NCBI GenBank assembly: GCA_964405685.1
Contig: CAYOOP010000001.1
Coordinates: 270,922 to 334,921 of the forward strand
Direction: 5' to 3'
Length of the DNA: 64,000 nucleotides
Origin: an uncultured Rickettsiales bacterium
GTDB taxonomy: Bacteria > Pseudomonadota > Alphaproteobacteria > Rickettsiales > SXRF01
Every line of letters begins with the position of its first letter. Positions within the stretch are counted from its first letter, which is position 1. Below, in pieces: positions 1,623 to 61,732 of this stretch. Both the position numbers and the translations under genes were made by a program. Under the pieces are notes generated by a model, which was not told the DNA's origin, did not search any database, and worked only from the letters and a program-made list of their open reading frames with translations.

Positions 1623-2069
1623 ATGCCCTCCATTGCCCTCTATCAGCCTGATATTGCTCAAAATGTTGGTGCCGTTATTCGCACCTGCGCCTGTTTTGGC
1701 GCTCCGCTACACATCATTGAACCGTGCGGGTTTATCTTCGATATGGCGCGGATTAAAAAGGCAGCGCTTGATTATGTGGAACATGCGGACGTTATCCGCC
1801 ACAGCAGTTTTGAGGTGTTTAGGAAAGATCGGCCGGCAGGGAAATTGGTGCTCTTTTCCACCAAGGCAACGCTTGATTATGATCAACACGCATTTGCACC
1901 CAATGATCTACTTCTCTTCGGGCGCGAGAGCGCGGGAGTGCCGGAAGATGTTGCGGCGGCAGCAGATGTATGTGTACGTATTCCGATGCGTGAAGGCATG
2001 CGTTCGCTTAATGTGGCGCAAACTGCGGCGATTGGAATTTCAGAAGCAATGAGGCAACACCGAGCATGA
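1623..2069 (+). CDS. trmL: tRNA (cytidine/uridine-2'-O)-methyltransferase TrmL (SpoU family)
   Basis: [34 protein letters not shown]... and C-terminal [15 protein letters not shown] are SpoU/TrmL motifs. I chose ATG 1623 inside the 1608 ORF. Confidence 0.85.
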
Positions 2070-3055
2070 TTAAAGACCAACAGGAAAAAGCAGCCGCGTG
2101 GTTTCGCGATTTACGCAACCGCATTTGCGCAGAATTTGAGAAGATCGAACAAGAATATAATATGTGGTCAGCAGACCACACCAGCCATGAGCCTACGAAG
2201 CAGCGCCCCATGGAATGTTCTCCTGAACATTCCATGGGGCTTTTCAAAAGAACACCCTGGAACCGCGAAGGCGGTGGGGGCGGTGAAATGTCGGTGATGA
2301 AAGGACGTGTGTTTGAAAAAGTAGGTGTGAATATTTCAACCGTACACGGTGAGTTTACACCTGAATTCCGCAAAGAAATGCCCAACGCACAAGAATATCC
2401 CTTCTTCTGGGCGAGCGGAATTTCCTTGGTTGCACATATGTGTTCCCCGAAGGTTCCGGCGGTGCATATGAATACAAGGATGATAGTGGTGTCGAAAGTA
2501 CCATTTAGTGATTCGAGGCCAGAAGGCCGAGTCAGCCCTGAGCTGCGCCTCATGGCGGATTCAGCAGAATCCGCCGGAGGCAATCAATATAAACTCTGGT
2601 TTGGTGGAGGTGCGGACCTCACGCCGATGAAGCCCGATGCCAAAGATACGGAGGATTTTCATGCGGCGTTTAAGGCCGCGTGCGATGCGCATGATGCAGG
2701 CTATTACCCCAAATTCAAACAATGGTGTGATGAGTATTTTTTCCTGAAACACCGTAATGAACCGCGCGGCGTGGGCGGGATTTTTTATGACTATGTGAAC
2801 ACCGGGAATTGGGATGCCGATTTTGCATTTACGCAATCCGTTGGCGAAGCGTTTTTGAATATCTACCCGCAATTAGTGCGGCGATATTACAAAGAAACAT
2901 GGACGAAGGAAGACCGAGAACACCAGCTGATGCGGCGCGGGAGGTATGTGGAGTTTAATTTGCTGTATGATCGCGGCACGCGGTTTGGGCTTATGACCGG
3001 TGGCAATACGGAGGCGATTTTGATGAGTCTTCCTCCAGAGGTGATGTGGCCATAA
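2066..3055 (+). CDS. hemF: Oxygen-dependent coproporphyrinogen III oxidase HemF, carrying two extra in-frame segments
   Basis: Motifs [66 protein letters not shown] and EAILMSLPP are present. ATGA overlap with trmL. At 329 aa it is longer than the roughly 280-300 aa I recall for HemF. Confidence 0.92.
2206..2239. repeat. Perfect palindrome (15-bp arms, 4-nt loop) inside the hemF coding sequence
   Basis: CCCCATGGAATGTTC-TCCT-GAACATTCCATGGGG read directly from the sequence. It encodes [12 protein letters not shown] in the hemF frame. Confidence 0.85.
2507..2587 (+). repeat. 81-bp hairpin-rich repeat element, in-frame copy 1 (inside hemF)
   Basis: An ungapped hand alignment to the reverse complement of 29421-29501 gives 57/81 identities. 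Hairpins are GGCC-AGAA-GGCC and GGCGGATTC-AGCA-GAATCCGCC. It encodes [27 protein letters not shown]. Confidence 0.7.
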
Positions 3056-8232: not shown

Positions 8233-9471
8233 ATGTCTCCCTCTATTAAACGCACCCTTTCCAAGTCTATTGTCCGCGTCAGCGGTGGGTTTAAGGTGCT
8301 ACTTCTCACTGGGCCAAGGCAGGTAGGCAAGACCACCCTGCTGCAAAACGTCGATAAGAAAAAGCGCACGTATGTAACACTCGACGATTTAACGCAGCGT
8401 GCGGCGGCGTTATCCGATCCTGCCGGGTTTATTCAAAACTTGGAACTCCCCGTTCTGATTGACGAAGTGCAGTATGCGCCTGACTTGTTTCCTTATATCA
8501 AGATAGCCGTGGATAGGAGCCAAAGGCCCGGTGAATTCTGGCTTACCGGTTCACAGCAATTTGAGATGATGAAGAATGTGACCGAATCACTCGCCGGTCG
8601 CGTAGGCATCTTGCAGCTTCAGGGCATTACGCTGGCCGAAGAACAAGGAAGAACAAGCGCTCCCCCCTTTTTGCCGGAAGCAAAGTTGCTTAAAAAACGC
8701 GGGGAATTGGCGCAACCGCTGAGTGCGCACCAAGCCTTTCAGAAAATATGGCGCGGATCATATCCGGCAATGGTCATACAAAAAGGGAAGCATTCAGCTG
8801 AAAACTGGGAACAGTTCTATGATTCCTATGTTTCTACTTATATCCAGCGTGATGTGCAGGACTATCTTGGTGTGAAAAGCAAAGCGACGTTTTTGAAGTT
8901 CATGCAGATCGCCGCTGCGCGCACGGCACAACTCGTCAATTACGCAGATATTGCAAGCGATGTTGGCGTCAGTCAGGTAACGATTAAGTCCTGGCTTAAT
9001 GTTCTGCAAGCCTCCGGCATCGTCAGATTGCTACAACCTTATTACCGAAACCAAACCAAGCGTTTAGTAAAAACACCCAAGCTCTATTTCATGGATACCG
9101 GGCTGTGTGCGTTCCTGACTGGCTGGCTGAACGCACAGGTGCTGGAGCGCGGCGCGATGGCCGGTGCGATGCTGGAAACCTATGTGGTATCGGAAATCAT
9201 CAAGTCATACCTCCACAATGGTCGTAATCCTCGTGTGTATTTTTACCGTGACAATAAAAAGAACGAGGTGGATTTTCTGATTGAGGAAAACGGCACGCTC
9301 TACCCGCTAGAAATTAAAAAAACCGCGTCGCCATCCCGCGCCGATTGCAAAGTCTTTGATTATCTTAAGGGTGTTAAAACCCCTGTCGGGCATGGTGGCG
9401 TCATTTGTTTTGTGTCAACACTTGTGCCGCTCGTCGAAGACATTGACGCCATCCCGGTTGGGTATCTGTAG
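8233..9471 (+). CDS. AAA+ ATPase of the AAA_14/DUF4143 type
   Basis: 412 aa. Walker A LLLTGPRQVGKTTLL and Walker B VLIDEVQYAP. The C-terminal part (YFYRD....EVDFLIE...YPLEIK) is the restriction-endonuclease-like DUF4143 module as I recall it. Confidence 0.8.
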   Translation: MSPSIKRTLSKSIVRVSGGFKVLLLTGPRQVGKTTLLQNVDKKKRTYVTLDDLTQRAAALSDPAGFIQNLELPVLIDEVQYAPDLFPYIKIAVDRSQRPGEFWLTGSQQFEMMKNVTESLAGRVGILQLQGITLAEEQGRTSAPPFLPEAKLLKKRGELAQPLSAHQAFQKIWRGSYPAMVIQKGKHSAENWEQFYDSYVSTYIQRDVQDYLGVKSKATFLKFMQIAAARTAQLVNYADIASDVGVSQVTIKSWLNVLQASGIVRLLQPYYRNQTKRLVKTPKLYFMDTGLCAFLTGWLNAQVLERGAMAGAMLETYVVSEIIKSYLHNGRNPRVYFYRDNKKNEVDFLIEENGTLYPLEIKKTASPSRADCKVFDYLKGVKTPVGHGGVICFVSTLVPLVEDIDAIPVGYL

Positions 9472-18490: not shown

Positions 18491-20491
18491 ATGAGTACCA
18501 TACCCTACGAAGCATTATTGTGTCGCCAAACTCCTGACATTAAAACACGCGCCGTAGCGTTGCGGCAAAAAGTAATTGATGCGGTACAAACAGGCAAAAT
18601 TCCCGTAGTAAGCAATGATAGAAGGATGGAGTTTGAACCCGAACACGACACCATCATCTATCTAGCGCTTCATGAGCCATCATCCTTAAAAGATCATTTA
18701 GCCACCACACGCTCCACTGCGGGTCAGCGTGAAGCATTGGATGCCTTAGAAACAGAATACATCGCCTTACACCAACGTCTCAATAATGCGTGGCCTGAAA
18801 AGAAAGCATTGCTGAAGTTAGAGAAAGAAAGCATCGATTCTACCATTGCGAAATGGTTATCAGCAGAAGAAATTGGAAATAGTGAAGTAGTCAACAAAGC
18901 AGCATTGCACCTTAAACAATACCGTTCTTATAATCCCCCTCATCTTACACACAAGAAGTCTTTTGTAGAAATGATTGCAGAGGGAGAGAGTGTTAAGGCC
19001 CCCTATGAACAAATTATAAAAGATATTCTTGAAGAGTGGTCATGTCCTGGAAAGAGATTTACCCTTAAAAACCTTGCAACACATCTACTCTCAGGCAGCA
19101 CTGAATTATCTCAAAGAGAAATAGAGTTATGGCTTCAAAGCCCGGGTAAGGATGGCAAAATTCGTGACAAAGTAACCGAACAAGTCTGCAACGCGACAGG
19201 TATGAGCAATGAAGATGAGGCTATGTTTTGGCGTGTGGCGCGCGGGAATCCTTCTATCCAGATTGATAGCAATCTATCGGCAACGGAGGTTTATGAACAG
19301 CTCACGAAGAAAATTGGTGCTCCCATCTTTCGTCTCCATCGGATGATAGGATCCTATGAAGATGTTATGCATAATGGAAGCCGTAGCGAAGACAGAATTT
19401 TCCATATGCCTGAAGCGCAAACATTATTGTCTTTTGCGCAACCATCAAAGCCCTGGTTATCACAAACCGCAGATCCTAAACAATGGCGTCAGAATTGGCT
19501 GATTGCGAGAAAACTATCCGGTGACTCACATCCCAAATTATTTGAGGATATGATTATGGATGCCGTTGCTTCGGACAATCCACGCAAGACATTGCTCAAA
19601 AGTATTCTAAATAGATCCGGTATCCATCCCGAGACCACGGAATCATTGCAAGGAAAATGGCAACATGTGAACCCGGACGGGCAATATGGGATAGACCATG
19701 TAAAAGCTCTGCGCGTGGGTCAATCCAGACCACTTACACGTCTAGAAGCGCAAGTGATTGTAGATGGTGCCCGCGAAGCATGCCCAACCTTAAATGCGGC
19801 CGCACAAGAGACGTGTATTGAAATGCTGATGGACTGCCCGCCGCGCGATATTCTTATTGATCGCTACATTCATCAGATAGATGCCAGCGGGCATCCTGCA
19901 AAAGTGCCTCTTAAATCGACGCTTAAAACGATTGCCGACAGTGAGCAAAAAACATTGACGTCAAGAGATCGCAATCAAAGATTTGTGCCAGAAGTGACAG
20001 AAGAATTTCATGATATTCTCACAAAAAATGATAGATTAACGCACGTAGGAGCTCCTTTATTTGCCAATAAATTGGGGCTTGAGGGGCCTCGTCGCAGGAA
20101 ATTTCTAGTGAGAGCAAAAGGCATTGCTGAGCAGGATCCGGAAACGGTTATCGACGATGTGCTTGGTAATAAAATCTCAGCGGCAGCCGGCTTAACCACA
20201 TTGATGGAGCAAACCGGGCATACCCAAACTAGCTTTGCTAAGGTTGCAGGTGAAGATCCACGCACTATTATGAATTGGTGCAAAAAGGGGTTTTCTATGA
20301 AAACGGGACTGGCACAGCATTTAGCAAATGAACTTCACCGCCCTGATCTTGCCGAAAGGATTCAGAAAACGTTTTGTCGTCGCACCAAAATAAATGATTC
20401 TAGCTTTGAACAAGCCCAAACAGAACGGGTGCATCATTTCCAAAATCTTGTTGCAAGTCAGATTGATGCACTGGGTCAAAACAAGCGCTAA
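18491..20491 (+). CDS. Hypothetical 666-aa protein (islet cargo)
   Basis: Long uninterrupted ORF in AT-rich DNA. Contains helix-turn-helix-like stretches (e.g. TQTSFAKVAGEDPRTIMNWCKKG). I cannot assign a family. Confidence 0.7.
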   Translation: MSTIPYEALLCRQTPDIKTRAVALRQKVIDAVQTGKIPVVSNDRRMEFEPEHDTIIYLALHEPSSLKDHLATTRSTAGQREALDALETEYIALHQRLNNAWPEKKALLKLEKESIDSTIAKWLSAEEIGNSEVVNKAALHLKQYRSYNPPHLTHKKSFVEMIAEGESVKAPYEQIIKDILEEWSCPGKRFTLKNLATHLLSGSTELSQREIELWLQSPGKDGKIRDKVTEQVCNATGMSNEDEAMFWRVARGNPSIQIDSNLSATEVYEQLTKKIGAPIFRLHRMIGSYEDVMHNGSRSEDRIFHMPEAQTLLSFAQPSKPWLSQTADPKQWRQNWLIARKLSGDSHPKLFEDMIMDAVASDNPRKTLLKSILNRSGIHPETTESLQGKWQHVNPDGQYGIDHVKALRVGQSRPLTRLEAQVIVDGAREACPTLNAAAQETCIEMLMDCPPRDILIDRYIHQIDASGHPAKVPLKSTLKTIADSEQKTLTSRDRNQRFVPEVTEEFHDILTKNDRLTHVGAPLFANKLGLEGPRRRKFLVRAKGIAEQDPETVIDDVLGNKISAAAGLTTLMEQTGHTQTSFAKVAGEDPRTIMNWCKKGFSMKTGLAQHLANELHRPDLAERIQKTFCRRTKINDSSFEQAQTERVHHFQNLVASQIDALGQNKR

Positions 20492-20510
20492 CCCAAAGAC
20501 TTCCTATAAT

Positions 20511-20542
20511 GTTCGCTGGTTCAAATCCAGCCTCCACCACCA
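20511..20542 (+). repeat. Duplicated tRNA-Tyr 3' fragment (att-like right repeat)
   Basis: Identical to 18324-18355 over 32 bp. The flanking bases differ on both sides. Confidence 0.9.
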
Positions 20543-20619
20543 CGCTTCGCCCCGATGGGGCTACGTGTGGCGCTGCCACTTTTGCTAGACAAGTGGGTTG
20601 GTGGCGTTAGAGTCCTCCC

Positions 20620-21366
20620 ATGCACAATCTACTTCTCATCATTGAAGATGATATCCTGTTCTATCCGCAGTTTGTGGCACGGCTTATCCAACAGTCGCCG
20701 ATGCCGGTTGTAGGCATTATTATCGCGCGGGCGGCGGCCAAGCATAATCGCTATCGCCATGCGCTTAAAACCATTCGTTATTTTAAAATCGCCGAGCTGT
20801 TGAAGTTGCTGGTGTGGCACGCACGCGCAATGGCATCCGGCAATTCGGTCGCGCATGTAGCGCAAAAGCGGACTATCCCGGCCATCATTGCCAAGGGAAG
20901 CGTGAATACGCCGGAGATCATCGCATGGGTGAAGGAACGTAACCCAGATGTTATTTTTTCGGCGAGTCCGCTGATTGTCGGCACCCAGCTGCTCGCAATG
21001 GCGCCGCTTGCAGTCAATATGCATTTCTCGCTGCTGCCGGCGTATAAGGGCATCATGCCGCTGTTTCATGCGATGGCGCATGAAGAGACCATGGCGGGCA
21101 TTTCGCTGCATGAAATGACGGAGAAAATTGATGAGGGGGCGCTGGTATATCAGCGACCGGTGGCGCTAGACTATAACCGTTCGCTGATGGACAATTACAG
21201 AAATTTTTTCGGCTTGGCAGTGGAGTGTGTTATAGCGTTTTTAAACGATGTTAAAAACGGTAACCGCACGATGCCAACACCTTCCGGACAAGCGCCTTCT
21301 TATTTTCGCCATCCCGATGCCGACGCGTGGAAGCAATTTCGAACCAGGCGTGTGCCGTTTATATGA
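20620..21366 (+). CDS. Stand-alone formyltransferase (Fmt/ArnA N-domain-like)
   Basis: VNMHFSLLPAYKG (N/H of the catalytic triad, SLLP motif) and EKIDEGALVYQ (catalytic Asp region). Has no C-terminal Fmt or dehydrogenase domain. Confidence 0.75.
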   Translation: MHNLLLIIEDDILFYPQFVARLIQQSPMPVVGIIIARAAAKHNRYRHALKTIRYFKIAELLKLLVWHARAMASGNSVAHVAQKRTIPAIIAKGSVNTPEIIAWVKERNPDVIFSASPLIVGTQLLAMAPLAVNMHFSLLPAYKGIMPLFHAMAHEETMAGISLHEMTEKIDEGALVYQRPVALDYNRSLMDNYRNFFGLAVECVIAFLNDVKNGNRTMPTPSGQAPSYFRHPDADAWKQFRTRRVPFI

Positions 21367-22589
21367 TGCTGACCCCTAGGCTTCGGCTGTACACCAAGAA
21401 TATTTCCTACTGGCGCGCAGCGCAAGAATTGTTGGGTGCGGGCAACCCGGCGGCTATTGCGCGCACTGAGAAAATAATTGCCGACCATACCCATGCGCGT
21501 CACGCGGTGCTGACCTCGATGGGGCGAATGGCGATTTACGAAGGCTTGCGGGCGCTTGGTGAAACAGGTGAAATTATTGTTTCGCCGATTACCGTGCCAG
21601 AGGTGATTAGCCTCGTGGTGCTCGCTGGGTTCACACCCGTGTTTTGCGACGTGGCGCCGGGTGCGTGGAATATGGATGTAGAAAAAGTAGAAGCGTTGAT
21701 TACCGATAAAACTGTCGCGATTATGACCACGTATTTTTACGGCAATATGGGTAGTGCAAACGCAGTGCGGGTACTTTGCGATAAGCACGACCTATGGATG
21801 ATTGAAGATGCCGCGCAGGCAATCGGTGCGTGGCAAGATGGCAAGCACGCGGGGACGATTGGCGATTTCGGCATACTCAGTTTTAGCTATCCCAAAAATG
21901 TGACCTCGTTTTATGGTGGTTGCTTGGTAACCAATAGCGATGCAATTGCCGCACGGGTACGTAGTCAAATTGCGAACTATCCGCCGGTGGATAAAACCTG
22001 GCTCGCCAAAAAAGTGATGGGGTGTATTATTAAAGATGTGAGTACATTTTTCCCTGTGTTTCAATTGGTCGGGAGATTGATTCGTTACGGCTATGCCCAC
22101 GACATTCCCGCGATTAAAAAATTGGTGACGCAGGATTTAAATGAAGGCTTTACGCATATACCTCGGACCTATCTCACCCGAATTTCGCCGCAACAGGCAC
22201 AGGCGGTCGCCGATAAATGGCCGGAGGTGGATGAGGATGCTGCGCACCGGATTGCGTGCGCGGACATCTATGCGCGCGTGTTAAAAGATGTGCCGCAAGT
22301 CTTGTGCCCTGCGCTTCCTGGTGATCGTTCGCATACGTTTTTATATTTCCCGGTGCAGGTGCCGGATAAATATGCATTGCAGCATTATTTAATTGCGCAT
22401 TACTGCGACGTGGCTGTGCAACATGCGCAAAACTGCGCAGATCTGGACATCTATACACAATGGAAGCGCGAGTGCCCGAATGCGCGCGCAGCCTATGCGG
22501 GCACGCTGATGCTCCCGACCTATCGCGGGTTTCCGCTGAAGGAAGCGGAGCACTACGCGCAAACCATTCGAAAGTATTTTAACGCATGA
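21363..22589 (+). CDS. DegT/DnrJ/EryC1/StrS-family PLP-dependent sugar aminotransferase
   Basis: IEDAAQAIGA...GDFGILSFSYPKNVTSFYGG carries the family's conserved Lys context. ATGA overlap with the formyltransferase gene (ORF track start 21327). Confidence 0.85.
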   Translation: MMLTPRLRLYTKNISYWRAAQELLGAGNPAAIARTEKIIADHTHARHAVLTSMGRMAIYEGLRALGETGEIIVSPITVPEVISLVVLAGFTPVFCDVAPGAWNMDVEKVEALITDKTVAIMTTYFYGNMGSANAVRVLCDKHDLWMIEDAAQAIGAWQDGKHAGTIGDFGILSFSYPKNVTSFYGGCLVTNSDAIAARVRSQIANYPPVDKTWLAKKVMGCIIKDVSTFFPVFQLVGRLIRYGYAHDIPAIKKLVTQDLNEGFTHIPRTYLTRISPQQAQAVADKWPEVDEDAAHRIACADIYARVLKDVPQVLCPALPGDRSHTFLYFPVQVPDKYALQHYLIAHYCDVAVQHAQNCADLDIYTQWKRECPNARAAYAGTLMLPTYRGFPLKEAEHYAQTIRKYFNA

Positions 22590-24079
22590 CAATTATCATC
22601 GCCGGTTCTGGGCCTGCAGGCGCATTTGCCGCACTCGGTGCGCTCGAGGCGGGTGCGGATGTATTGATGATTGATGCGGGATTGGTGCCGGATGCTGCAG
22701 CGGCAACATTTAAAACGCGGCTCGCGGCAACGCCTTCGCAAGACTGGAGCACTGAGGACCGCGCGGCGCTTATGGGAGGTGCGATTTCAGGCACCAAGGG
22801 ACTCGCGCAAAAACGTCTGTTCGGATCGGATTTTGCAACGCGACCGTTGCAGGATTTTACCGAGCACCATTGCCGGATTATGCCGTCCTATGCGCTCGGT
22901 GGGCTTTCGAATGTGTGGGGTAGAGGTGTTGAGCCACCGTATGATAGAGAAGCCGAGCATTGGCCAGAACATGCAGCGTTTTTAAAATCGCTGCGCACGG
23001 TGCTTATGCACCTGCCCTTTTGCGCCGAGGTGGATAATCTTGCGGAAGTGTTGCCGGTGTTTACCAAGCCAAGCGCACCTCATGCGATTACTGCGGCGGC
23101 ACAAGCCTTGCTGAGCCATTGGAACGCACGGGCCGAGCAGCTGAATACTGATGGCATTCATTTCGGTAAAACGCGGTTGGCGCTCAATACCTCCACGTGC
23201 CAAAAATGCGGGATGTGTTTTTATGGCTGTGCGTATGATGCGATGTGGAGCAGTAGTGAGCTGATTGCGGCGTTGAAAAAACGCTATTCCAATTTCTCCT
23301 ATCGATCGGGCGTGTTGCTGAAGCGCTTTGCAGCAAGTGAGGCAGGTGTCGATGTAACGGTGGAATCTATCACCGAAAAAACGGAAACAACGTGGCAGGC
23401 GGCACGGCTTATTCTTGCTGCTGGCGCGCCGCAAACGACCGCGATTGCCATGCGAAGCTTAAGGATAGAAAAAGCGGTGCTTAAAAATAGCGATCTGATT
23501 CGCATTCCGTTTATCAGCCTGCGGCGTGCGCCGCTTGAGAGCAATTGTCATGCGCTTAGCCCGTTGACGCTCGCGATCAATCGGCGGGCGCTTTCTAAAA
23601 AAGCGATGGTGATGCATCTGTTCGGACAAAACCCAGCGATTGAGAATGCGGTGCTCTCCGCACTTCCGAAATGGGCCCATAGCATGGCGCGGAAATGTGT
23701 GACGCGGTTGTGGGTGGGGATGTGCTTTTTGCATTCCAGTGACTCAGGCAGGATTCTTGTGGAAGAACGTGATGGCACCATGCACTACACCGGACAGCGC
23801 AGAAAACAGGCACGAAACACTTACCTTAAACTGATGCTGTTTCTTGCATTGCGCATGTTTAAAACGGGACTAATACCACTGCCCGTTCCTGGCAGTCTCA
23901 CCCTGCCTGGCAGCTCGGTACACTACGGCGCATCGCTAGCTGTGGATGGGTATGGACGATTACAAGAACATGTTTACGTCGCGGATGCAAGCGGGTTGCC
24001 AGAGATTCCGGCGGGATCGTTTACGCTGTCTATTATGGCGCACGCGCACCGTGTGGGTGCTATGGTTGGCGCGGCTTGA
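22586..24079 (+). CDS. FAD-dependent oxidoreductase, GMC-like
   Basis: N-terminal IIIAGSGPAGAFAA dinucleotide fold, CQKCGMCFYGCAYDAMW motif and C-terminal VYVADASGLPEIPAGSFTLSIMAHAHRVG. This resembles the GMC oxidoreductase layout. Confidence 0.65.
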   Translation: MTIIIAGSGPAGAFAALGALEAGADVLMIDAGLVPDAAAATFKTRLAATPSQDWSTEDRAALMGGAISGTKGLAQKRLFGSDFATRPLQDFTEHHCRIMPSYALGGLSNVWGRGVEPPYDREAEHWPEHAAFLKSLRTVLMHLPFCAEVDNLAEVLPVFTKPSAPHAITAAAQALLSHWNARAEQLNTDGIHFGKTRLALNTSTCQKCGMCFYGCAYDAMWSSSELIAALKKRYSNFSYRSGVLLKRFAASEAGVDVTVESITEKTETTWQAARLILAAGAPQTTAIAMRSLRIEKAVLKNSDLIRIPFISLRRAPLESNCHALSPLTLAINRRALSKKAMVMHLFGQNPAIENAVLSALPKWAHSMARKCVTRLWVGMCFLHSSDSGRILVEERDGTMHYTGQRRKQARNTYLKLMLFLALRMFKTGLIPLPVPGSLTLPGSSVHYGASLAVDGYGRLQEHVYVADASGLPEIPAGSFTLSIMAHAHRVGAMVGAA

Positions 24080-24998
24080 GGTTGGGATTGTTTTGCATAT
24101 CGACCGTCAGGAAGAAAATCAAAAACTGAATTGCAAGAATAAGGCTGAGTGCGGAGAGCATGACCGTTCCGGAGGCACGCGCATGGCCGGTTGCAAGGGT
24201 AGCCATCCAGTTGATCGAACCATAAATGGTACCCAGCGTTCCCAGTACAAAGGCGAGCACTAGTGCTAGGGAACCTGCATTGAAATCGCGTACGAAATAG
24301 GTGTAGATAATCCGTTTGAAGGTATTGCAACTATGCTTACGCAGGAAACGCCAAATTTCGCGCAGCGGTTTTAAATTGCTTTTTTCATCGGCGTATTTAG
24401 CACGCATCGGAAATTCACGCACCACCGCACCCAGCAGATAAAGTTTGCACAGCATATCGGATTCGAAGAAATAGCGGTTGTCGATTTCGGCAAGATCCAG
24501 ATCTTCGAGCATGGGGCGCGAGATCGCCACGAATCCATTGGTCGGATCCATCAGATCCCAATAGCCGGAAGAGAGTTTGGTGAAAAATGAGAGCACGCCG
24601 TTACCCACCAAACGCGCCCAAGGCATGCCTTTTAAATAGCGCAAATAATAGAAGCGGTTGCCTTTGACGTAATCCGCACGGCCTTCGGCAATGGGTTTGA
24701 TTAATTCAAAAACTTGGTGCGTGGGCATCTGCCCGTCACCATCGATTTTAACAAAAATATCAGCATCGCTATGGGTGAGTGCATAGGCAAAACCAGCCTT
24801 CACAGCACCGCCGACGCCGAGGTTTTGCGGGTTGGTGAGCACGGTGACGTTGGGGAGATTTAGCTGTTCAATGAATGACCCGCTGGCTTCGGGGCAAGCG
24901 TCATCCACGCAAATAATAGCGACGTCAGGAAGGCTTTCCAATACATCCTTGATTTTGGATTTTACCTTATAGCACGGAATGATAGCGGCGATTTTCAT
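24060..24998 (-). CDS. Family 2 glycosyltransferase with C-terminal TM helices (ArnC/GtrB/DPM1-like polyprenyl-phosphate glycosyltransferase)
   Basis: KIAAIIPCYKV start, VDDACPE, KIDGDGQM (DxD) and two C-terminal TM helices. Size and architecture match ArnC-type enzymes. Confidence 0.82.
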   Translation of the reverse strand: MKIAAIIPCYKVKSKIKDVLESLPDVAIICVDDACPEASGSFIEQLNLPNVTVLTNPQNLGVGGAVKAGFAYALTHSDADIFVKIDGDGQMPTHQVFELIKPIAEGRADYVKGNRFYYLRYLKGMPWARLVGNGVLSFFTKLSSGYWDLMDPTNGFVAISRPMLEDLDLAEIDNRYFFESDMLCKLYLLGAVVREFPMRAKYADEKSNLKPLREIWRFLRKHSCNTFKRIIYTYFVRDFNAGSLALVLAFVLGTLGTIYGSINWMATLATGHARASGTVMLSALSLILAIQFLIFFLTVDMQNNPNLKPRQP

Positions 24999-25004
24999 AG
25001 GCGT

Positions 25005-27107
25005 TTAAAACCCCATATAGCTACGGCACGAGGGGAAATTGCGATCGATAAACCAACGCACAGCTTGACCGGATTGTACGAGACACAAGCCTGTAGTAGT
25101 GTTTTTGTCTTGGATAAAGTAAAGTGTCTCACTCCCGCGCGCAGCGGTTTGAACGTCGTAGTTATTCCCCAACGTTTTAACCCAAGGCACAATCGCCTCA
25201 CCCGGATAGTAGCGCCGCAACTCTGCGCCTCCTTTTACCGGATGGTGGGGCATGCCCATGTAAAAGGCTGAGGGCACCACATTGCCAAATGTGCCATAGG
25301 TTCTGCCCATGGGGGTAAATTCGCCTTGGGGCGAGGGCACGGGCAACAACCAGAAATCATTGTGCCAATTGATGGATTTAGAATAGGTTTTCGGAAGCGC
25401 GATGACGTTGGTGGCATTTTCCATGAGTTCATTTTTGGCCCATACATCCACAGCCGGAATAGCACGCAGCAGGGTATAAAAGGACATCAGATCATTGAAG
25501 TAGATGTTGACCCTGCCCTCTTTCAATTGATGCAGCTTGGGCACGACATCTTTTGCCATATGCGTTAGGCGATCGCCGCGGAAGATGTATTGCGGAATAT
25601 GATCGGCCAGGGTGATGAAGATAAAACAAGGCGGTAGCAGCAGTAACCAGGCAATCGCGCGTTGGATGCGGATATGATAGCGTTCGATTGCCTCCAGGGT
25701 GATGAGGAATGCTGGTAACAGCATTACTACGCCGATCATGAAATAGCGGCCAGTGCCCGACCAGAACATGAGCTTGACGCTGTAGACTGCCGTTGAAATT
25801 AAAAACAATGCCCAACATGCGGCTGCCAGGGGTTTGGATTTCGGGCGCGCTAAGAAAAGAGCGGCGAAGGCTACAATCGGAATCAATCCAAATTGCGAAT
25901 TTTCGCGCGTGAGGGAGAAAGGCATGAAGTATTCGATCAGCGCTGTGGAATCAAACACGCAACGCGAGGGCATTAAATCAATGCCGTTTCCAGGAATGTA
26001 CGAGGTGACGTGCAGGCGCAAAAAGGTGATGTAGTTGCGGATGCCGTCAATACCGAGCTCAAACAAGCGCAGATAAAAATGCGCCGCCGCGCAGCCCATA
26101 TCGCCATGCGATTTGTGATAGGCAGCAAGGCGTTTCATTTGCCCGTCAAAGGTAATGCCGTGGTTGGCGTTGGTGAGTTGGTCAGGTAGCAATGCTAGCA
26201 AGATGATCGGCACTAAGGCCACGAGCGCCAAGCCGATGACACGCGGGTGGAACCATTGCACCAAGCGTTCTTTGCCGCCAAAATAAAGAAGTAACATGAG
26301 TAGGGCACCGGGTAAAAAGATGCCGGTGGTTAGTTTGACCGAAACGGCAATGGCGCTGCATAGCAGTAAGAAAAATATCGCCCGGAAATCTAGCGGTTTG
26401 ACGATTAGCCACACGGCGGCGCGGGTGACGAGAAATAGTGTCAGTGCCTCTTCGTGGCCGCCGAGGCCGGAAAATAAAAATTGTGGTGCGGCGATGAATA
26501 GCGTGACCCAGAATAGGTGTTTGAGGGTGCGTTCGCGGCCAAACAAAAGCCAAAGATTGAGTAAGGAGGCAACCACCAGCACGGCGTTGATAATAGCATA
26601 AAAGATGGGGATTAGGTGCAGGGCGTGGATGGCGGTAAACACAACATAGTACACCGATGGGAAAAAATACATGACCGACAGGCTATCGACGTGCGAGGTT
26701 TCCCAGGCGGAGCCGGTTTTGGTGGCAAACACCATGCGGGCAAGTTTGACGCGTTGTTCATCCGCCGAATCGGGCGACATGAAACAAGCAAGCAGCACGA
26801 GACCGAGGACAATACCACCGATGGCGTAGTAATAAAACCGCGGGCCTTCGGCAGGGGCTTGGGTGGTGGGAGCGATGCGTGGGACACCGATTAAATGAAT
26901 GAACACGATGGTTGAGGCAGCAAAGCACCCGGCATAAAGCATGGGTGAGCCTAGTAGGCCGTAAAACGACAGCAGCATGGTAGTAAGAAACGCACCAAAA
27001 ATAGCGCTTTCGGCACCGCCGGTGATTGGCTCCGCGGCTCGGCACAGCCAATTTACGAAACGTTTGAGAATAGAAAACATGGCGGGACTTTGGCGTAAAT
27101 ACCCCAA
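25005..27107 (-). CDS. Large polytopic membrane protein with a roughly 200-aa C-terminal soluble domain (possible GT-C-fold glycosyltransferase)
   Basis: 700-aa ORF. More than 12 predicted hydrophobic helices over the first roughly 480 aa, then a soluble tail. Lies directly upstream of the GT2 gene and co-oriented with it. The function call is inferred from architecture only. Confidence 0.55.
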   Translation of the reverse strand: MGYLRQSPAMFSILKRFVNWLCRAAEPITGGAESAIFGAFLTTMLLSFYGLLGSPMLYAGCFAASTIVFIHLIGVPRIAPTTQAPAEGPRFYYYAIGGIVLGLVLLACFMSPDSADEQRVKLARMVFATKTGSAWETSHVDSLSVMYFFPSVYYVVFTAIHALHLIPIFYAIINAVLVVASLLNLWLLFGRERTLKHLFWVTLFIAAPQFLFSGLGGHEEALTLFLVTRAAVWLIVKPLDFRAIFFLLLCSAIAVSVKLTTGIFLPGALLMLLLYFGGKERLVQWFHPRVIGLALVALVPIILLALLPDQLTNANHGITFDGQMKRLAAYHKSHGDMGCAAAHFYLRLFELGIDGIRNYITFLRLHVTSYIPGNGIDLMPSRCVFDSTALIEYFMPFSLTRENSQFGLIPIVAFAALFLARPKSKPLAAACWALFLISTAVYSVKLMFWSGTGRYFMIGVVMLLPAFLITLEAIERYHIRIQRAIAWLLLLPPCFIFITLADHIPQYIFRGDRLTHMAKDVVPKLHQLKEGRVNIYFNDLMSFYTLLRAIPAVDVWAKNELMENATNVIALPKTYSKSINWHNDFWLLPVPSPQGEFTPMGRTYGTFGNVVPSAFYMGMPHHPVKGGAELRRYYPGEAIVPWVKTLGNNYDVQTAARGSETLYFIQDKNTTTGLCLVQSGQAVRWFIDRNFPSCRSYMGF

Positions 27108-27122
27108 AATAGCAACCAGGAT

Positions 27123-28781
27123 ATGCGAGACTTCGCACTTGGAAATGCGCTTTTTATCAGTATGCTGGCCCCCATGTTACTGGATGCTGTTTTCTTTCCT
27201 GTTTTCTTGGGTTGTGCCTATGTGCTGGGCATCGGGGCACTGCGCCTTTTTCCTGGAGATAGGGTGACGGAGCCGCTTTATCTCCCGTTTGTGGTTGCGT
27301 TTTTGACGTTGGGAAGCGTTGCCTTGGGTGTTAATTTTTTCACCGGTGTCGATTCGCTGGTGTATTATGAAATCATGGGCGCAATTGGTTTGGGGGGGAT
27401 TTTACAATTCCGAAAAACAGATTGGCAGCGCTTGTGGCCCCTGTTGCCATTTAGTCTTTTGTTGGTGCCACTCGCAGCCCAAATGCCAGCGGGTGCGGAT
27501 GCGGGATTGTACCATATTCCGCACCAGGTGTTAATTCGGGATGAGAAAATTATTTTTGGTCTCGCCAATCTTCATAGCCGTTATGGGTTTTCCTCCATGA
27601 TGGAATATGTGCTAGCGCCGCTATGGATTGGGGAGCAATTCAAGCTACTGTCCTATGCCCACGCTGCTTTTGTGGCGGCGTGGTTGTTGTTTTTGTGGGA
27701 GTGGATTTCGTCCTCCCAAAAAACAATCGCCGCGCTCGGATGGCTGACGCTGATTTCCATGCTGTGCTACTGTATGTATTTCGATTTTGGCTATACTTCG
27801 ACCGATACGCCGTCTGGCATTATGTTCGCCATCGCATTTTTAAATGGTGTCGCCCTGCTGCTGGGCGAAGGGCCCGTTAGCAGGCGGCAGCTTTTAGTGT
27901 TTTTTCTTTGCGCCGTGTTCGCATACACCTGCAAACTCAGCAACATCACCGTGGTGCTTTGGGCGGGATTTGTAGTGGCGAAACTGCTGCATCAGCGACG
28001 CATCGCTTGGAAGCCCTTGATGCAAGCTGCTGCTTTGCCTACGCTACTTATGAGTATGTGGTTGATGAAGAACTTTATTGTCAGCGGTTGCCTGCTTTAT
28101 CCAAGTGCGGGTACGTGTTTGGATGTGTCGTGGGCGGCGAAAGCGAATGCAATTGAAAATGCCAACGGCATCACCGCCTGGGCGCGCCACCCGCAGGATG
28201 ATTTGCGGCCACTGCACAGTTGGAATTGGTTGTGGGAGTGGTGGTGGCCGAACCAACGCGTCTTTTTAGTGTTTATGGCCGCCACCTTTACCGCCGTTGC
28301 GAGTGGCTACTGGGTGTTTTGCAAAACCGAGAAACATCACCGCCGCGATGTGATGTTGCCTGCCTTGGTCATCACCCTTCTGGGATTAGCGCTCTGGTTT
28401 TTCAAGGCACCAACCCCGCGGTTTGGGATTGGTGTGTTTATCATAGTGGTGCCGGTGGTGGTGGTAACGTTGTTTGGATTCCGTTGGACAGCGCACACGT
28501 GGCTGCTCAAGCTGCGGCTTGTTGTTCTGCTATTACTTGCGGCACGGCTTGGAATGATGGCAAATACGCATGTCATTCGCCATCTCAATTTAAATACAGA
28601 CATCGATATGATGCCGGCACCGATGGTGGAAGTAAAACTCGACAAAAACTTCGGATTCCGCCCGGCAGGCAACACACCGGGGGCGGATTGCATTTGTTGG
28701 ACCGTGCATTATTGCGCACCTGATGCACGCCCCCCCATCAGCGAAGCGCACGGTTATAAATTCTTCAAGCAGCCATTATAG
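27123..28781 (+). CDS. Large polytopic membrane protein (possible glycan polymerase, ligase or GT-C)
   Basis: 552-aa ORF, hydrophobic throughout, with a periplasmic-looking loop LYHIPHQVLIRDEKIIFGLANLHSRYGFSS. No confident family assignment. Confidence 0.5.
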   Translation: MRDFALGNALFISMLAPMLLDAVFFPVFLGCAYVLGIGALRLFPGDRVTEPLYLPFVVAFLTLGSVALGVNFFTGVDSLVYYEIMGAIGLGGILQFRKTDWQRLWPLLPFSLLLVPLAAQMPAGADAGLYHIPHQVLIRDEKIIFGLANLHSRYGFSSMMEYVLAPLWIGEQFKLLSYAHAAFVAAWLLFLWEWISSSQKTIAALGWLTLISMLCYCMYFDFGYTSTDTPSGIMFAIAFLNGVALLLGEGPVSRRQLLVFFLCAVFAYTCKLSNITVVLWAGFVVAKLLHQRRIAWKPLMQAAALPTLLMSMWLMKNFIVSGCLLYPSAGTCLDVSWAAKANAIENANGITAWARHPQDDLRPLHSWNWLWEWWWPNQRVFLVFMAATFTAVASGYWVFCKTEKHHRRDVMLPALVITLLGLALWFFKAPTPRFGIGVFIIVVPVVVVTLFGFRWTAHTWLLKLRLVVLLLLAARLGMMANTHVIRHLNLNTDIDMMPAPMVEVKLDKNFGFRPAGNTPGADCICWTVHYCAPDARPPISEAHGYKFFKQPL

Positions 28782-28811: not shown

Positions 28812-30062
28812 TTAGAGTTCGACTTTTTGACCTTTTTTACGTTCGGAATCAGACTTAAGCTGCCCGCAGGCTGCAAAAATATCCCGCCCGCGGGGGGTGC
28901 GGATCGGGGAAATATAGCCTGCTTTGTAGATGATTTCGGCGAAGGCGTTGATGCGCGCATCGTCCGAGCATTCGTAGTCCGAGCCGGGCCATGGGTTGAA
29001 AGGAATGAGGTTTACTTTCGCATGGACGCCTTTGAGTAGACGGACCAATTCCTTAGCGTCCGCATCGGTGTCGTTTACGCCTTTAAGCATCACATATTCA
29101 AAGGTAATGCGGCGGGCGTTGGTGGCACCGGGGTATTTTTTGCAGGCTTCGAGCAATTCTTCTATCGGGTATTTTTTATTGAGCGGCACCAGCACGTTCC
29201 GCAAATCATCGCGCACGGCGTGGAGCGAAATGGCGAGGTTGACGCCGAGCTCGGTGCCGACGCGCTCAATCATCGGCACGACGCCGGAGGTCGAAAGGGT
29301 GATGCGGCGTTTGGACATGGCGATGCCGTCGGTATCCATGATAATGCGCAGTGCTTTGGCCACATTGTCGTAGTTAAACAGTGGCTCGCCCATGCCCATC
29401 AGGACGATGTTTGTGAACCTTGCGTTGCTCCCAGCGACTTCTTCTGAAGTCGCTATGGAGCGCGGCTCAGGGCTGGCGCGGTCTGCTGACCGCGCATAAC
29501 GCGGCCATTCTTTGAGGCCATCGCGCGCGACGAGGACTTGCGAAACAATCTCGCCGGGTTTGAGGTTGCGCACCAGCGGCATGGTGCCGGTGTGGCAGAA
29601 AGAACATGAGAGGGTGCAGCCGACTTGTGATGATATGCACAGCGCGCCTCGTTCCGTTTCCGGAATGAATACGGATTCGACTTTGTTGCCGTCGGGAAAT
29701 CCGAGCAACCATTTGCGCGTGCCATCGACCGAGGTGAGATCCCGCACGGACTCGGGCCGAGAAATCGTGAAATGTTCTTCCAGCAAGGGGCGCTTGGTTT
29801 TGGCGATGTTGGTCATCTCATCGAAGCTCGTCGCCCCGCGCGCATAGATCCAGTTCCACACCTGCTTGGCGCGGTATGGTTCCAAGCCAACGCTGGTCAG
29901 CGCCACCGTCAATTCTTCCAGCGTCAAACCAACCAATGAGGGCTTGGAACTGGGCGCGGCCAAGGGTACCTGCGGCGTTTTGGTAATCACACCATCATAG
30001 GTAGTAAGTGCCGCCGGATAATGGTGCACCTCGGCTTCGTTATGAATGGTTTCCGGTTCCAT
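28812..30062 (-). CDS. rlmN: Dual-specificity 23S rRNA/tRNA adenine-C2 methyltransferase RlmN (radical SAM), carrying an in-frame repeat insertion
   Basis: [11 protein letters not shown], radical-SAM CxxxCxxC (GCTLSCSFC), [13 protein letters not shown] and C-terminal ACGQL. I chose internal ATG 30062 because the longer ORF overlaps the upstream gene. Confidence 0.9.
29421..29501 (-). repeat. 81-bp hairpin-rich repeat element, in-frame copy 2 (inside rlmN)
   Basis: Its reverse complement aligns ungapped with 2507-2587 (57/81). Hairpins are GCGCGGTC-AGCA-GACCGCGC and GCGACTTC-AGAA-GAAGTCGC. It encodes [27 protein letters not shown]. Confidence 0.7.
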
Positions 30063-30492
30063 GGAATTGATACCCAAAAGCCGTGGTTCTAATGTATTCT
30101 GGCTCCCCCGGCAAGGTTTTAAGCTTGGCACGAAGGCGGTGAATGTGGGTTTCGAGCGTGTGGGTGTCGATATCGTCAGCATAACCCCACACGGTTTTAA
30201 GCAGGGTTTCGCGTGGCACTTCCGTGTCGGCATCCAGCAGGGTTTTCAGCAATAAGGCTTCTTTTTCAGTCAGTTCGATCGAAATTTCTCCGCACGTCAC
30301 GCTTTTTTTTGCGCTGTCAAAAAAAATGCCGGGGGCGAGGGGCACGCTCTCGCTCTTCAGCTTTTTAAGTAGATCCCGCAGAGGGATAGGCCCGTTTTCA
30401 AACAGGCTTTCTGGAACAGCGGCGTCTATCCCAAAGGGCTCTAATACTTCTACAATGGCGGTATTAAAACGTGGGTCGGTTGCGCTTGACAT
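30040..30492 (-). CDS. Winged-helix (OmpR/PhoB C-terminal type) DNA-binding protein lacking a receiver domain
   Basis: [13 protein letters not shown]....[33 protein letters not shown]...[11 protein letters not shown] is a Trans_reg_C-like domain. The N-terminal 60 aa is too short for a receiver. Confidence 0.7.
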
Positions 30493-59373: not shown

Positions 59374-60095
59374 TGTTCGATAATCTTTCGTGTAAGTTGT
59401 TCGGCGATTTTTTTCTTGCTGCCGTGCCAGGTTTCTGACGTGTCGGCGGTTATCCATAGCACCGTTGTTGCCTCAGCATCAAATATTTTTCCGTCCGAAA
59501 CGTCATTGGCAATCATCCAATCGCAGCCTTTGGCTTTGCGTTTTTGCTTAGCACGTGCCTCCAACTGTTCTGTCTCGGCTGCAAAACCAATCACCAGCTT
59601 GGGGCGCGGATTGCTTCTGGCGATGGCTTTTAAAATATCCGGGTTTTGCACCAGTTCTATGGCAGGCGCTGCATCTGTTTTCTTGATTTTCTGACGCGCT
59701 ACTTTCTTAGGCCGCCAGTCCGAAACCGCCGCTGCGCTGATGAAAATATCAACGGGCAATACGCTTTTGCACGCCGCCAGCATCTCTTTGGCGGTCGTCA
59801 CCTTAATCACACTCAATTGTTTCGGATCCGGAATGGAAACTGGGCCGGAGACCAAAATAACCTCCGCGCCTGCATCGCGCAGCGCCTCCGCAATCGCATG
59901 GCCTTGCTTGCCGGAGGAACGATTGCCAAGAAAACGCACAGGATCCAGCGGTTCGTGCGTGGGGCCGCTGGTGACGAGTACTTTTAAGCCTTTCAAGGAG
60001 TTCATACCCTTAAGAATATCATCGTAGCCTTCGGACTTTGCAAGCGCATTATGATTGTATTTTATATTTGACATTATGTATTTTATATCATACAA
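59364..60095 (-). CDS. coaB: Phosphopantothenate-cysteine ligase (CoaB domain as a separate ORF)
   Basis: [37 protein letters not shown] and GFAAET motifs of the Dfp C-terminal domain. The start codon is uncertain (candidates 60095, 60074, 60005). Confidence 0.85.
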
Positions 60096-60096
60096 T
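60068..60096 (+). promoter_or_regulatory. Sigma-70-like promoter for the toxin-antitoxin pair, embedded in operator-like repeats
   Basis: TTGACA (60068-60073), a 17-nt spacer, then TACAAT (60091-60096), 6 nt before ATG 60103. Flanked by the inverted repeat GATTGTAT/ATACAATC and two TGTATTTTATAT direct repeats 21 bp apart. Confidence 0.5.
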
Positions 60097-60102
60097 CAAA
60101 CG

Positions 60103-60399
60103 ATGTTCCAAATCCTTCAAACGACAGTGTTTGAAAAATGGTTGCGCGGTATGAGGGACAGGCGGGCGAAAGATCGTATCCTCGCGCGCCTGGTGCGTAT
60201 GGGTGCAGGAAACCTTGGGGACGTGAAGTCCGTGGGCGAGGGTGTAACCGAGGCGCGTATTGACTATGGGCCGGGCTATCGCCTCTATTTTATTCGCCAC
60301 AAGAAGACCGTGCTGGTGATGCTGGGTGGAGGAGATAAATCCTCACAAGCCAGAGATATTAAACGCGCCAAGGAATTGGCGAAGGGATGGGAGATATAA
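60103..60399 (+). CDS. Type II toxin, RelE/HigB superfamily ('addiction module killer protein' type)
   Basis: FEKWLRGMRDRRAKDRILARLVRMGAGNLGDVKSVGEGVTEARIDYGPGYRLYF....VLVMLGGGDKSSQARDIKRAKELA matches the killer-protein family pattern I recall (GN.GD.K.VGEGV.E.RID.GPGYR.YF, GGDKS.Q..DI..A). Confidence 0.85.
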   Translation: MFQILQTTVFEKWLRGMRDRRAKDRILARLVRMGAGNLGDVKSVGEGVTEARIDYGPGYRLYFIRHKKTVLVMLGGGDKSSQARDIKRAKELAKGWEI

Positions 60400-60690
60400 G
60401 TGATGAAAAAAACAAAAACCACCGTATTCGATGCAGCCGATTACCTCAAAACCGAACGCGATATGCTGGGGTTTTTAAGCGCCTGTTTTGAAGAAGCGGG
60501 GGATGATGCCGCCTATATTGCCGCTGCACTCGGCGTGGTTGCGCGCGCTAAGGGAATGACAAAACTGGCCAAAGAAACCGGCGTCACCCGTGCAGCGCTT
60601 TACCACGCACTGTCTAAAAAGGGGAATCCTGAATTCAGCACCGTGCTCAAGGTGATTCACGCGCTGGGCCTGAAACTGCAGGTGGCGTAA
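60400..60690 (+). CDS. Type II antitoxin, HTH 'addiction module antidote protein' (HigA-like)
   Basis: FDAADYLKTERDMLGFLSACFEEAGDDAAYIAAALGVVARAKGMTKLAKETGVTRAALYHALSKKGNPEFSTVLKVIHALGLKL is the family pattern. Abuts the toxin stop (GTG 60400 / ATG 60403). Confidence 0.85.
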   Translation: MMKKTKTTVFDAADYLKTERDMLGFLSACFEEAGDDAAYIAAALGVVARAKGMTKLAKETGVTRAALYHALSKKGNPEFSTVLKVIHALGLKLQVA

Positions 60691-61678: not shown

Positions 61679-61698
61679 GACAATTCCAATGACACCCC

Positions 61699-61727
61699 TT
61701 GCAAAACTGCGGTAATGCTAGTATATT
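61699..61727 (+). promoter_or_regulatory. Candidate promoter of the tmRNA gene
   Basis: TTGCAA (61699-61704), a 17-nt spacer, then TATATT (61722-61727), upstream of the tRNA-like acceptor piece. Confidence 0.4.
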
Positions 61728-61732
61728 AGTAG

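Follow-up and report, generated by a model that had tools for sequence, protein, structure and literature searches.

The window, a 64,000-nucleotide stretch of one contig (CAYOOP010000001.1, positions 270,922 to 334,921) from an uncultured Rickettsiales bacterium, has a G+C content of 52%, carries flagellar genes and contains 63 open reading frames (ORFs), two of which, hemF and rlmN, hold in-frame copies of the short palindromic element described here. The hemF gene (2066..3055, + strand) encodes an oxygen-dependent coproporphyrinogen III oxidase (Pfam PF01218, Coprogen_oxidas, E = 2e-92) and hosts copies "A" and "C"; rlmN (28812..30062, − strand) encodes the radical SAM 23S rRNA/tRNA A-C2 methyltransferase (Pfam RlmN_N and Radical_SAM) and hosts copy "B." The start of rlmN was taken from the called 416-residue product P0121 (100% identical), and both ORFs are intact across their copies.

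Copy A (2507..2587, +; core 2513-2581), at site 2 of hemF, and copy B (29421..29501, −) are each 27 codons long. When copy B is reverse-complemented, the two match at 57 of 81 positions without a gap, exactly as counted in an earlier reading of the window from its letters alone (the sequence-only reading), whose translations, 12 of 27 identical residues and 21/25 identity in the core were likewise correct. Searched on either strand over the whole window, the best other 81-mer matches copy A at only 39 positions; copy A gives 44 matches to its own reverse complement, because it is palindromic. The similarity between A and B ends at both edges of the 81-mer, beyond which the flanks are unalignable. 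A covariance model built from 21 copies, run with filters off over the full 64 kb, gives exactly three hits: copy B with 92.9 bits, copy A with 91.1 bits (E = 1.4e-23) and copy C with 48 bits (E = 1.4e-11), the next distinct locus having an E-value of 0.23. (A better-scoring match at 2205-2242 on the − strand is the palindromic hairpin of copy C read from the opposite strand.) Copy C (2156..2246, +) is a degraded copy, in frame at site 1 in the N-terminal part of hemF, and was first caught by an nhmmer profile built from five copies (E = 3e-8); the sequence-only reading, with two copies in the window, had missed it. With 57 matches against a background maximum of 39, and a third copy in the same window, the similarity lies well outside chance expectation.

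Alignments with orthologues and PDB homologues show that all three copies are insertions. The alignment of HemF to the solved structure 8t7w breaks from residue 144 to 176 of the query versus 124 to 130 of the structure, and that of RlmN to the Escherichia coli enzyme (3rf9, E = 1e-87) breaks from 233 to 264 versus 153 to 163. Between HMNTR and WFGGG, HemF has 39 residues where 8t7w has 13; the sequence-only reading, with about 12 for E. coli, had given it 41. Many of the closest HemF homologues are about 280 residues long and have no insert at all, while in others the peptide is recognisably present, be it at this position, at the N-terminal site or, as a third location, after IFYDY. The closest RlmN (P0122, about 90% identical) has no insert, nor do P0123, P0124, P0126 and P0139; P0125, P0127, P0132, P0135, P0151, P0195 and P0204 have one in the same loop. 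Filled and empty alleles can also be compared as DNA, with a net gain of 63 nt in the window rlmN versus that of its closest relative (locus L038) and of 75 nt in L039 versus L040, and an oligopeptide-type ABC ATPase gene is filled in L002 and empty in its window orthologue. With the segments missing from HemF in the PDB, from E. coli RlmN and from many close orthologues, the lineage-specific insertion proposed in the sequence-only reading is borne out. In AlphaFold2 models, the predicted local distance difference test score (pLDDT) drops below 50 over residues 42-52 (copy C) and 150-171 (copy A) of HemF and 189-213 of the 416 residues of RlmN (copy B). These stretches, which coincide exactly with the inserts, fall between regular secondary-structure elements, consistent with the surface loops that had been expected.

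Other inserts occur as well. In P0128, P0137, P0156 and P0214, the RlmN loop (alignment A4, columns ~197-235) contains a different insert, ..EERSDDLAGG.ARSASGGSVPP.., either a decayed copy in which ARSA is kept or a separate insertion, and the loop appears to be an insertion hot spot. A second kind of in-frame GC-rich insert is present at ~3083-3130 of L010 and in the HemF proteins P0028, P0036, P0042, P0062 and P0120 (alignment A1, columns ~305-350). It translates as PSPLKGEG, GGGQGWG..PPNGGG or NPHPNPLPERERE..SPFQGEGRDEG, directly adjoins the two-hairpin element in RluD, and is probably another palindromic repeat family colonising ORFs.

Hairpin anatomy and nucleotide-level conservation

The element is 75-81 bp long with a G+C content of about 60%, and consists of hairpin 1 (8 bp), a single-stranded spacer, CAGCCNTGAGC, and hairpin 3 (14 bp, bulged); the apical motif, YC-AGMA-GR, is common to the two hairpins. 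In copy A, hairpin 1 (2513..2532) is TCGAGGCC-AGAA-GGCCGAGT, with four perfect pairs and a tandem G.A mismatch; the spacer (2533..2546) is CAGCCCTGAGCTGC, whose CAGCCNTGAGC part is nearly invariant family-wide; and hairpin 3 (2547..2581) is GCCTC-AT-GGCGGATTC-AGCA-GAATCCGCC-G-GAGGC. Copy B has no mismatch in either hairpin (hairpin 1, 29476-29495; spacer, 29462-29475; hairpin 3, 29427-29461; all on the − strand), and its loops are AGCA and AGAA, the reverse of the AGAA and AGCA of copy A. The downstream stem has nine perfect base pairs in both, GGCGGATTC/GAATCCGCC in copy A and AGCGACTTC/GAAGTCGCT in copy B, and continues for five more across the 2-nt bulge. Copy C has kept a hairpin 1 (2163-2180, TGTGGTC-AGCA-GACCACA), has a small in-frame insertion in the spacer, and ends in a hairpin 3 (2205-2240) that is a perfect 16-bp palindrome with a changed loop, TCCT. 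Compared with dinucleotide shuffles, the predicted RNA folds are very stable, with −37.5 kcal/mol (z = −4.3) for copy A and −41.2 kcal/mol (z = −6.0) for copy B, and copy C reaches z = −6.4. Six distinct perfect hairpins of at least 9 bp occur in the window versus about 1.25 expected, and three of the six belong to this element.

The pairing is conserved across the family by covariation, as seen in an alignment of 21 ungapped copies over 81 columns (alignment A7). Hairpin 1 (columns 7-14 with 19-26) is paired in 80% of cells, with 6 of its 8 pairs varying on both sides; hairpin 3 (columns 41-56 with 61-75, including the 2-nt bulge) is paired in 97%, with 11 of 14 varying on both sides. Overall, 86% of cells are paired versus 73% after shuffling, 17 of 26 pairs vary on both sides, and the observed covariation values were reached in none of 500 shuffles; sliding the partner by 1-3 columns lowers pairing to 29-48%. 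A small middle hairpin (columns 27-30 with 36-39) is paired in 63% of cells without covariation and was rejected. As corrections to the sequence-only reading, the upstream hairpin of copy A is imperfect as described, and the middle hairpin lacks support from covariation. The invariant columns are mostly unpaired or loop-closing, and spacer columns 27-31 and 33-35 are invariant in all 21 copies. The tandem G.A/A.G mismatch of hairpin 1 (columns 9-24 and 10-23) recurs in 14 of the 21, and G.T wobbles outnumber A.C by 14 to 5. Since tandem G.A is stable on the sense strand, its complement being C.T/T.C, and G.T is in excess, it is suggested that the usual sense strand is the one that folds, albeit weakly because the copies are related.

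The strongest evidence comes from how conservation is distributed over the codon, namely at the nucleotide and not at the peptide level. In nine genomes compared pairwise at hemF site 2, the element has mean identities of 0.80/0.80/0.80 at codon positions 1, 2 and 3 and of 0.60 for amino acids, while the rest of hemF has 0.85/0.89/0.50 and 0.82; in the spacer, third codon positions are invariant in all nine orthologous copies. The rlmN site (six genomes) shows a weaker form of the pattern, with 0.69/0.64/0.65 inside the element versus 0.80/0.86/0.48 in the host gene, and amino-acid identities of 0.44 versus 0.76. Such flat conservation means that the constraint is on the nucleic acid. The sequence-only reading had taken the compensatory changes in the downstream stem as a sign of selection on DNA or RNA structure rather than on peptide sequence, and both the covariation and the codon-position test agree with it.

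The step from compensatory change to selection is weaker for the stems themselves. Compensatory-looking changes in palindromes can arise by mutation alone, through template switching, and copy C, which has lost the loop motif and yet has the longest perfect palindrome, is what such correction of a quasi-palindrome would give. Template switching does not explain the invariant loops and spacer.

Known structured RNAs offer no match: the window gave nothing at the gathering threshold of Rfam 15, and region 2100-2650 searched at a permissive threshold gave only noise (E ≥ 0.55). Resemblances to a hammerhead core, an iron-responsive element (IRE) loop and EcoP15I sites (CAGCAG) were noted by eye and judged superficial, Rfam being the only check.

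Distribution, reading frame and origin

The element is dispersed over unrelated genes in a group of related genomes. A 19-base degenerate pattern drawn from the conserved columns, which would miss diverged relatives, was scanned against one genome per species for 185,579 species and found 22 loci. Sixteen, none of them in Rickettsia, lie in metagenome-assembled genomes (MAGs) whose titles read "Rickettsiales bacterium" or "Alphaproteobacteria bacterium"; the remaining six are in unrelated taxa, compare with about nine estimated chance matches, and were all rejected by the covariance model. Each MAG has 1-3 strict-pattern hits and never more than three, and a contig of 1.43 Mb (CAXRIF010000003.1) has a single one; these figures come from incomplete MAGs, and full scanning covered the window alone. 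The same pattern found only 11 loci in JGI metagenomes, where every recovered copy of the element is in hemF. Profile and covariance searches over all fetched loci (323 kb) gave 37 hits, about 30 distinct copies, so that the further copies called for by the sequence-only reading now comprise the third one in the window and about 30 others in about 15 related MAGs, spread over 12 host genes and two intergenic spacers. Independent assemblies from NCBI, JGI, ENA and Logan yielded the element.

About 30 of 32 distinct copies (some 90%) are inside ORFs. The 12 host genes, confirmed by Pfam or by reading, encode HemF (three or four sites), RlmN, HisF, an RluD-type pseudouridine synthase, UvrB, RecJ, UbiD, NadE and YggS (the last seven by Pfam), Mfd (by reading), a UvrD-like helicase fragment and the oligopeptide-type ABC ATPase of L002. 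Over loci L008-L026 and P0241, four of the 12 hosts (uvrB, mfd, recJ and the uvrD-like gene) are DNA-repair or helicase genes, numbers too small for a statement on enrichment. The mfd gene (L019, 3185-3433) has one full and two partial or degraded copies in tandem, all in frame (KEAQSVALSQPHGMSKANTGGQ ... KEAQSADCASPELRPMGEPEGETGGK). The intergenic copies lie between convergent genes in L020 and downstream of thyX in L007; the latter (1793-2044) has a direct repeat on either side, ATTATGAGGGGATTCTGTTGCCCGGCTCC (MRGFCCPAP twice in translation), perhaps a further repeat or perhaps a product of duplication at insertion.

Searches with the peptide added little. A HMMER profile scanned against 1.8 billion representatives had only three hits with E ≤ 0.001, among them one useful hit (the UvrD-like fragment) and one unrelated repeat protein, a poor yield that we ascribe to the shortness of the peptide; a word-indexed search with padded alignment returned 25 candidates, none of which scored. 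The consensus had no blastn match in 72,556 plasmids. Full-text searches of the literature brought up no description of the element, which does not prove that none exists.

The consensus core is open in four of its six frames, and the one usually read in genes is by far the most hydrophilic of the six, stop-free with a grand average of hydropathy (GRAVY) of −1.49 and nine charged residues. Exceptions are the reverse-oriented copies in NadE and at hemF site 1 of L002, and the copies read in the +1 frame in the ABC ATPase and at hemF site 1 of L003; in relatives, this hemF site holds copies in either orientation and another frame. All genic copies are nevertheless stop-free in the frame of their host, and their length changes are in frame, while the intergenic copy of L020 has no open frame across it and, in the frame usual for the element, contains a TAA. 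This favours reading of the genic copies by ribosomes. Throughout the window GC skew is positive, and the two strong copies, in hemF and rlmN, are on opposite strands, so that orientation seems to follow the gene and not the replication fork. An orientation set by the replication strand is thus unsupported by the skew, though in so small a sample (n = 2) a bias at insertion could be hidden by selection on the reading frame.

On this basis, the copies probably belong to a new, low-copy family of short, GC-rich, non-autonomous palindromic insertion elements similar to the Rickettsia palindromic elements (RPEs), translated as a hydrophilic, disordered loop. The element has landed in many unrelated housekeeping genes, its presence varies among close orthologues, and it occurs in both orientations, in more than one frame and between genes. 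To the insertion, dispersal, conserved hairpins and loop placement seen above, this reading adds two steps that we infer, translation of the segment and its mode of movement. By the logic of the Rickettsia elements, host transcription and translation would take in the copies, which would then be tolerated as disordered loops on the protein surface because their unit length is divisible by three and the peptide is hydrophilic and disordered. For movement, the family would rely on an enzyme acting in trans, whose recognition signals would be the spacer and the two identical hairpin tips, probably in single-stranded DNA. The perfection of the stems may be kept at least in part by self-correction of the palindrome through template switching, since a perfect 16-bp stem is present even in copy C, decayed as it is. 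Decaying copies, such as copy C, the Mfd array and the odd RlmN loops, are what a selfish element predicts.

Several observations weigh against an insertion element of this kind. There is no transposase or other mobility gene among the 63 ORFs of the window, and we found neither terminal inverted repeats nor a clean target-site duplication: the ends, ..AAWGAAGCG and GGSGGCAAT.AWAAA.., are not complementary, and neither of the two filled/empty comparisons, in which the flanks have diverged and the borders are good to about 6 nt, has a clean duplication. Copy number is low (three in 64 kb; 1-3 strict-pattern hits per MAG), unlike that of a proliferating element. Conservation of orthologous copies, moreover, far exceeds that of neutral DNA. 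Third-position identity at hemF site 2 changes sharply at the borders of the element, from 0.50 outside to 0.80 inside, and between L012 and L037, 48% of host third positions differ but only 6% of element sites. Element and host distances are correlated (rho = 0.36-0.49), so orthologous copies look vertically inherited and constrained. Copies within a genome are no more alike (0.73) than copies between genomes (0.74), which means that gene conversion is not the cause of the conservation; concerted evolution or genome-specific subfamilies were rejected as a general explanation on the same numbers. Since this strong conservation and the low copy number are unlike a decaying parasite, we keep a function at the level of the host or of the mobility machinery as a serious rival, to which we give roughly one chance in five.

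Such a function could take the form of a host-level, cis-acting nucleic-acid signal, an mRNA structure or a DNA site that a dedicated protein binds through the identical loops and the spacer, under purifying selection whatever its origin; it would mark a small set of housekeeping and DNA-repair genes to be regulated, processed or engaged in DNA transactions in common. Codon positions conserved equally at hemF site 2 and rlmN beside host third positions near 0.5, the sharp edges of the conserved block, and invariant loops and spacer with covarying stems (a pattern classically seen in functional structured RNA or single-stranded DNA) all favor it, as do the few copies per genome, the orientation that tracks the gene rather than the replication strand, the tandem G.A pairs and G.T excess that point to folding of the sense strand, and the four DNA-repair genes among 12 hosts. 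Close orthologues do without the element, however (RlmN P0122, P0123 and P0139 and many HemF proteins), decayed copies without the loop motif persist in copy C and the Mfd array, the position within host genes is inconsistent, Rfam has no matching family, the bias in orientation and frame is explicable by the hydrophilicity of the peptide, and no partner molecule came to light. A signal of this kind is therefore possible but the less probable account. Equally tentative is its more specific form, in which the two-hairpin unit would be a coding-embedded signal under purifying selection, with a dedicated protein reading the YC-AGMA-GR tips and the CAGCCNTGAGC spacer on the sense strand, be it the still-active single-strand transposition machinery of the element or a host factor; if so, an embedded, translated cis-element is common to a handful of this clade's housekeeping and DNA-repair genes.

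The other explanations fare worse. Excision of the segment from the mRNA, or its bypass in translation, with the hairpins serving that step and the peptide absent from the protein, would fit the conservation of nucleotides rather than of the peptide, the bias toward the sense orientation and the stability of the hairpins (−37 to −41 kcal/mol). It is nonetheless very improbable, since every genic copy keeps the host frame open, as the intergenic L020 copy does not, and copies in other frames or in reverse are open as well, which is expected only if ribosomes read through. A protein-level module, an interaction or modification motif selected for its amino acids and spread by recombination, would account for the recurrence of R-x-SPE-x-R..M-E-F-S-A-E-N-S-G in many proteins. 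This idea is already close to refuted: amino-acid identity in the element is below that of the host at both sites and third positions are far above it, the same DNA read in other frames or in reverse gives unrelated peptides, the stem changes are complementary at the level of DNA, and the region is predicted to be disordered. Chance similarity of two lineage-specific loops, or an assembly artefact, for which only the short length of the match speaks, is refuted by the 57 of 81 matches over a background maximum of 39, covariance E-values of 1e-23 and the independent assemblies.

Some further features of the window are noted here. Next to rlmN, 18491-28778 has a lower G+C content (0.497), with genes for a formyltransferase, a DegT aminotransferase and a GT2 glycosyltransferase and four large ORFs without a Pfam match (18491-20488, 22586-24076, 25008-27107 and 27123-28778). 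As the closest relative, L038, has a phosphoglucosamine-mutase-type gene after rlmN instead, the stretch looks like a variable surface-polysaccharide island. A perfect hairpin at 21236-21259 has a 9-bp, AT-rich stem and lies close to where the formyltransferase ORF ends; another, at 30303-30326, has a T8...A8 stem between the upstream regulator gene of rlmN and secF and is possibly a bidirectional terminator. A two-piece (permuted) alphaproteobacterial tmRNA (61695-62055 and 62260-62733; 206 bits) includes a 14-bp perfect hairpin at 61809-61839 and is followed by sspB. The only mobile-element- or defence-like genes in the window are an addiction-module antidote gene (60055-60687; PF21716 and HTH_3), whose small upstream ORF may be a toxin gene, and a DUF4143/AAA_14 ATPase gene (8233-9468).

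Comparison with known systems

Miniature elements derived from IS200/IS605, the palindrome-associated transposable elements (PATEs), have two subterminal hairpins, one close to either end, and lack inverted termini; their insertion is tied to the lagging-strand template. The present element is similar in having its hairpins at columns 7-26 and 41-75 of 81 and no visible inverted termini or duplication, and precise excision as in PATEs would fit the scar-free empty alleles. It may differ in the orientation of insertion, its two strong copies (n = 2) lying on opposite strands under a uniform GC skew, and no tnpA was found among the window ORFs.

Repetitive extragenic palindromic (REP) sequences and the bacterial interspersed mosaic elements (BIMEs) built with them are tagged by GTAG/CGTC and mobilised by REP-associated tyrosine transposases (RAYTs), which are IS200/IS605-like Y1 enzymes (PMC3733652). 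The present element shares with them short GC-rich hairpins, conserved tips that suggest recognition of folded single-stranded DNA in trans, and no observed terminal inverted repeats or target duplication. REPs, however, are high-copy, extragenic single hairpins of 20-40 bp with a GTAG/CGTC head, whereas this element has two hairpins and a spacer, no such head, stem feet of GCGMGG and GCYCC, and an almost exclusively intragenic location. Identity with REP/BIME was rejected on these grounds, and no RAYT/Y1 transposase is present among the 63 window ORFs.

MITEs, which are miniature transposable elements with inverted repeats, are known with in-frame fusions from the ERIC/RU elements (PMC2759123) and from Anabaena and others (PMC10969869). 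Like these, the present element is a small non-autonomous repeat of the type occasionally tolerated in ORFs as extra peptide. MITEs carry terminal inverted repeats, duplicate their target site and lie mostly between genes; here no inverted termini and no clean duplication were found and about 90% of copies are genic, and a classical MITE was rejected on the first two grounds. Palindromes or hairpins within mitochondrial genes of Nematomorpha (PMC6649704) and of sponges (RHEs; PMC2800124) are also perfect inverted repeats translated in coding sequence, both arms coding, but they are organellar, of other size and sequence, and do not form a dispersed two-hairpin unit with conserved loops.

The closest likeness is to RPEs, which are about 100-150 bp long, form some ten families with dozens of copies per 1.3-Mb Rickettsia genome (Ogata et al. 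2000, as summarised in PMC10969869), and lie in frame in unrelated metabolic genes, encoding a conserved peptide judged compatible with the fold of the host protein (PMC10969869). The element described here is likewise a short palindromic repeat that sits in unrelated housekeeping ORFs, keeps their frame and reads as a conserved peptide, with some intergenic and some decaying copies. It differs in its length of 75-81 bp, its G+C content of about 60%, its few copies per genome, its hosts (52%-GC, flagellated, uncultured MAGs, none named Rickettsia), and the strong nucleotide-level conservation of orthologous copies. The RPE-like behaviour that the sequence-only reading had proposed is thus supported, the element being in frame, dispersed and lineage-specific; membership of an RPE family is not established, as the distinction rests on size, G+C, host lineage and copy number and not on a comparison with the consensus sequences of RPE-1 to RPE-10.

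RPE-like behaviour is thereby seen in a different, free-living-looking and uncultured alphaproteobacterial clade, in an apparently unrelated, rarer and much more compact element of unusually clean anatomy, with two covarying hairpins, identical tips and an invariant spacer. This makes it testable how such elements move, the conserved single-stranded motifs being candidates for recognition, and whether they are purely parasitic, given that all codon positions are conserved about as well as positions 1-2 of an essential gene, which neutral decay does not predict. In practical terms, the element enlarges and diversifies the surface loops of conserved enzymes and will confuse alignments and gene trees in the clade. 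The evidence supports a new family of in-frame palindromic insertion elements with an unusually well-defined anatomy, of a kind that, by analogy, is already known from the RPEs of Rickettsia.

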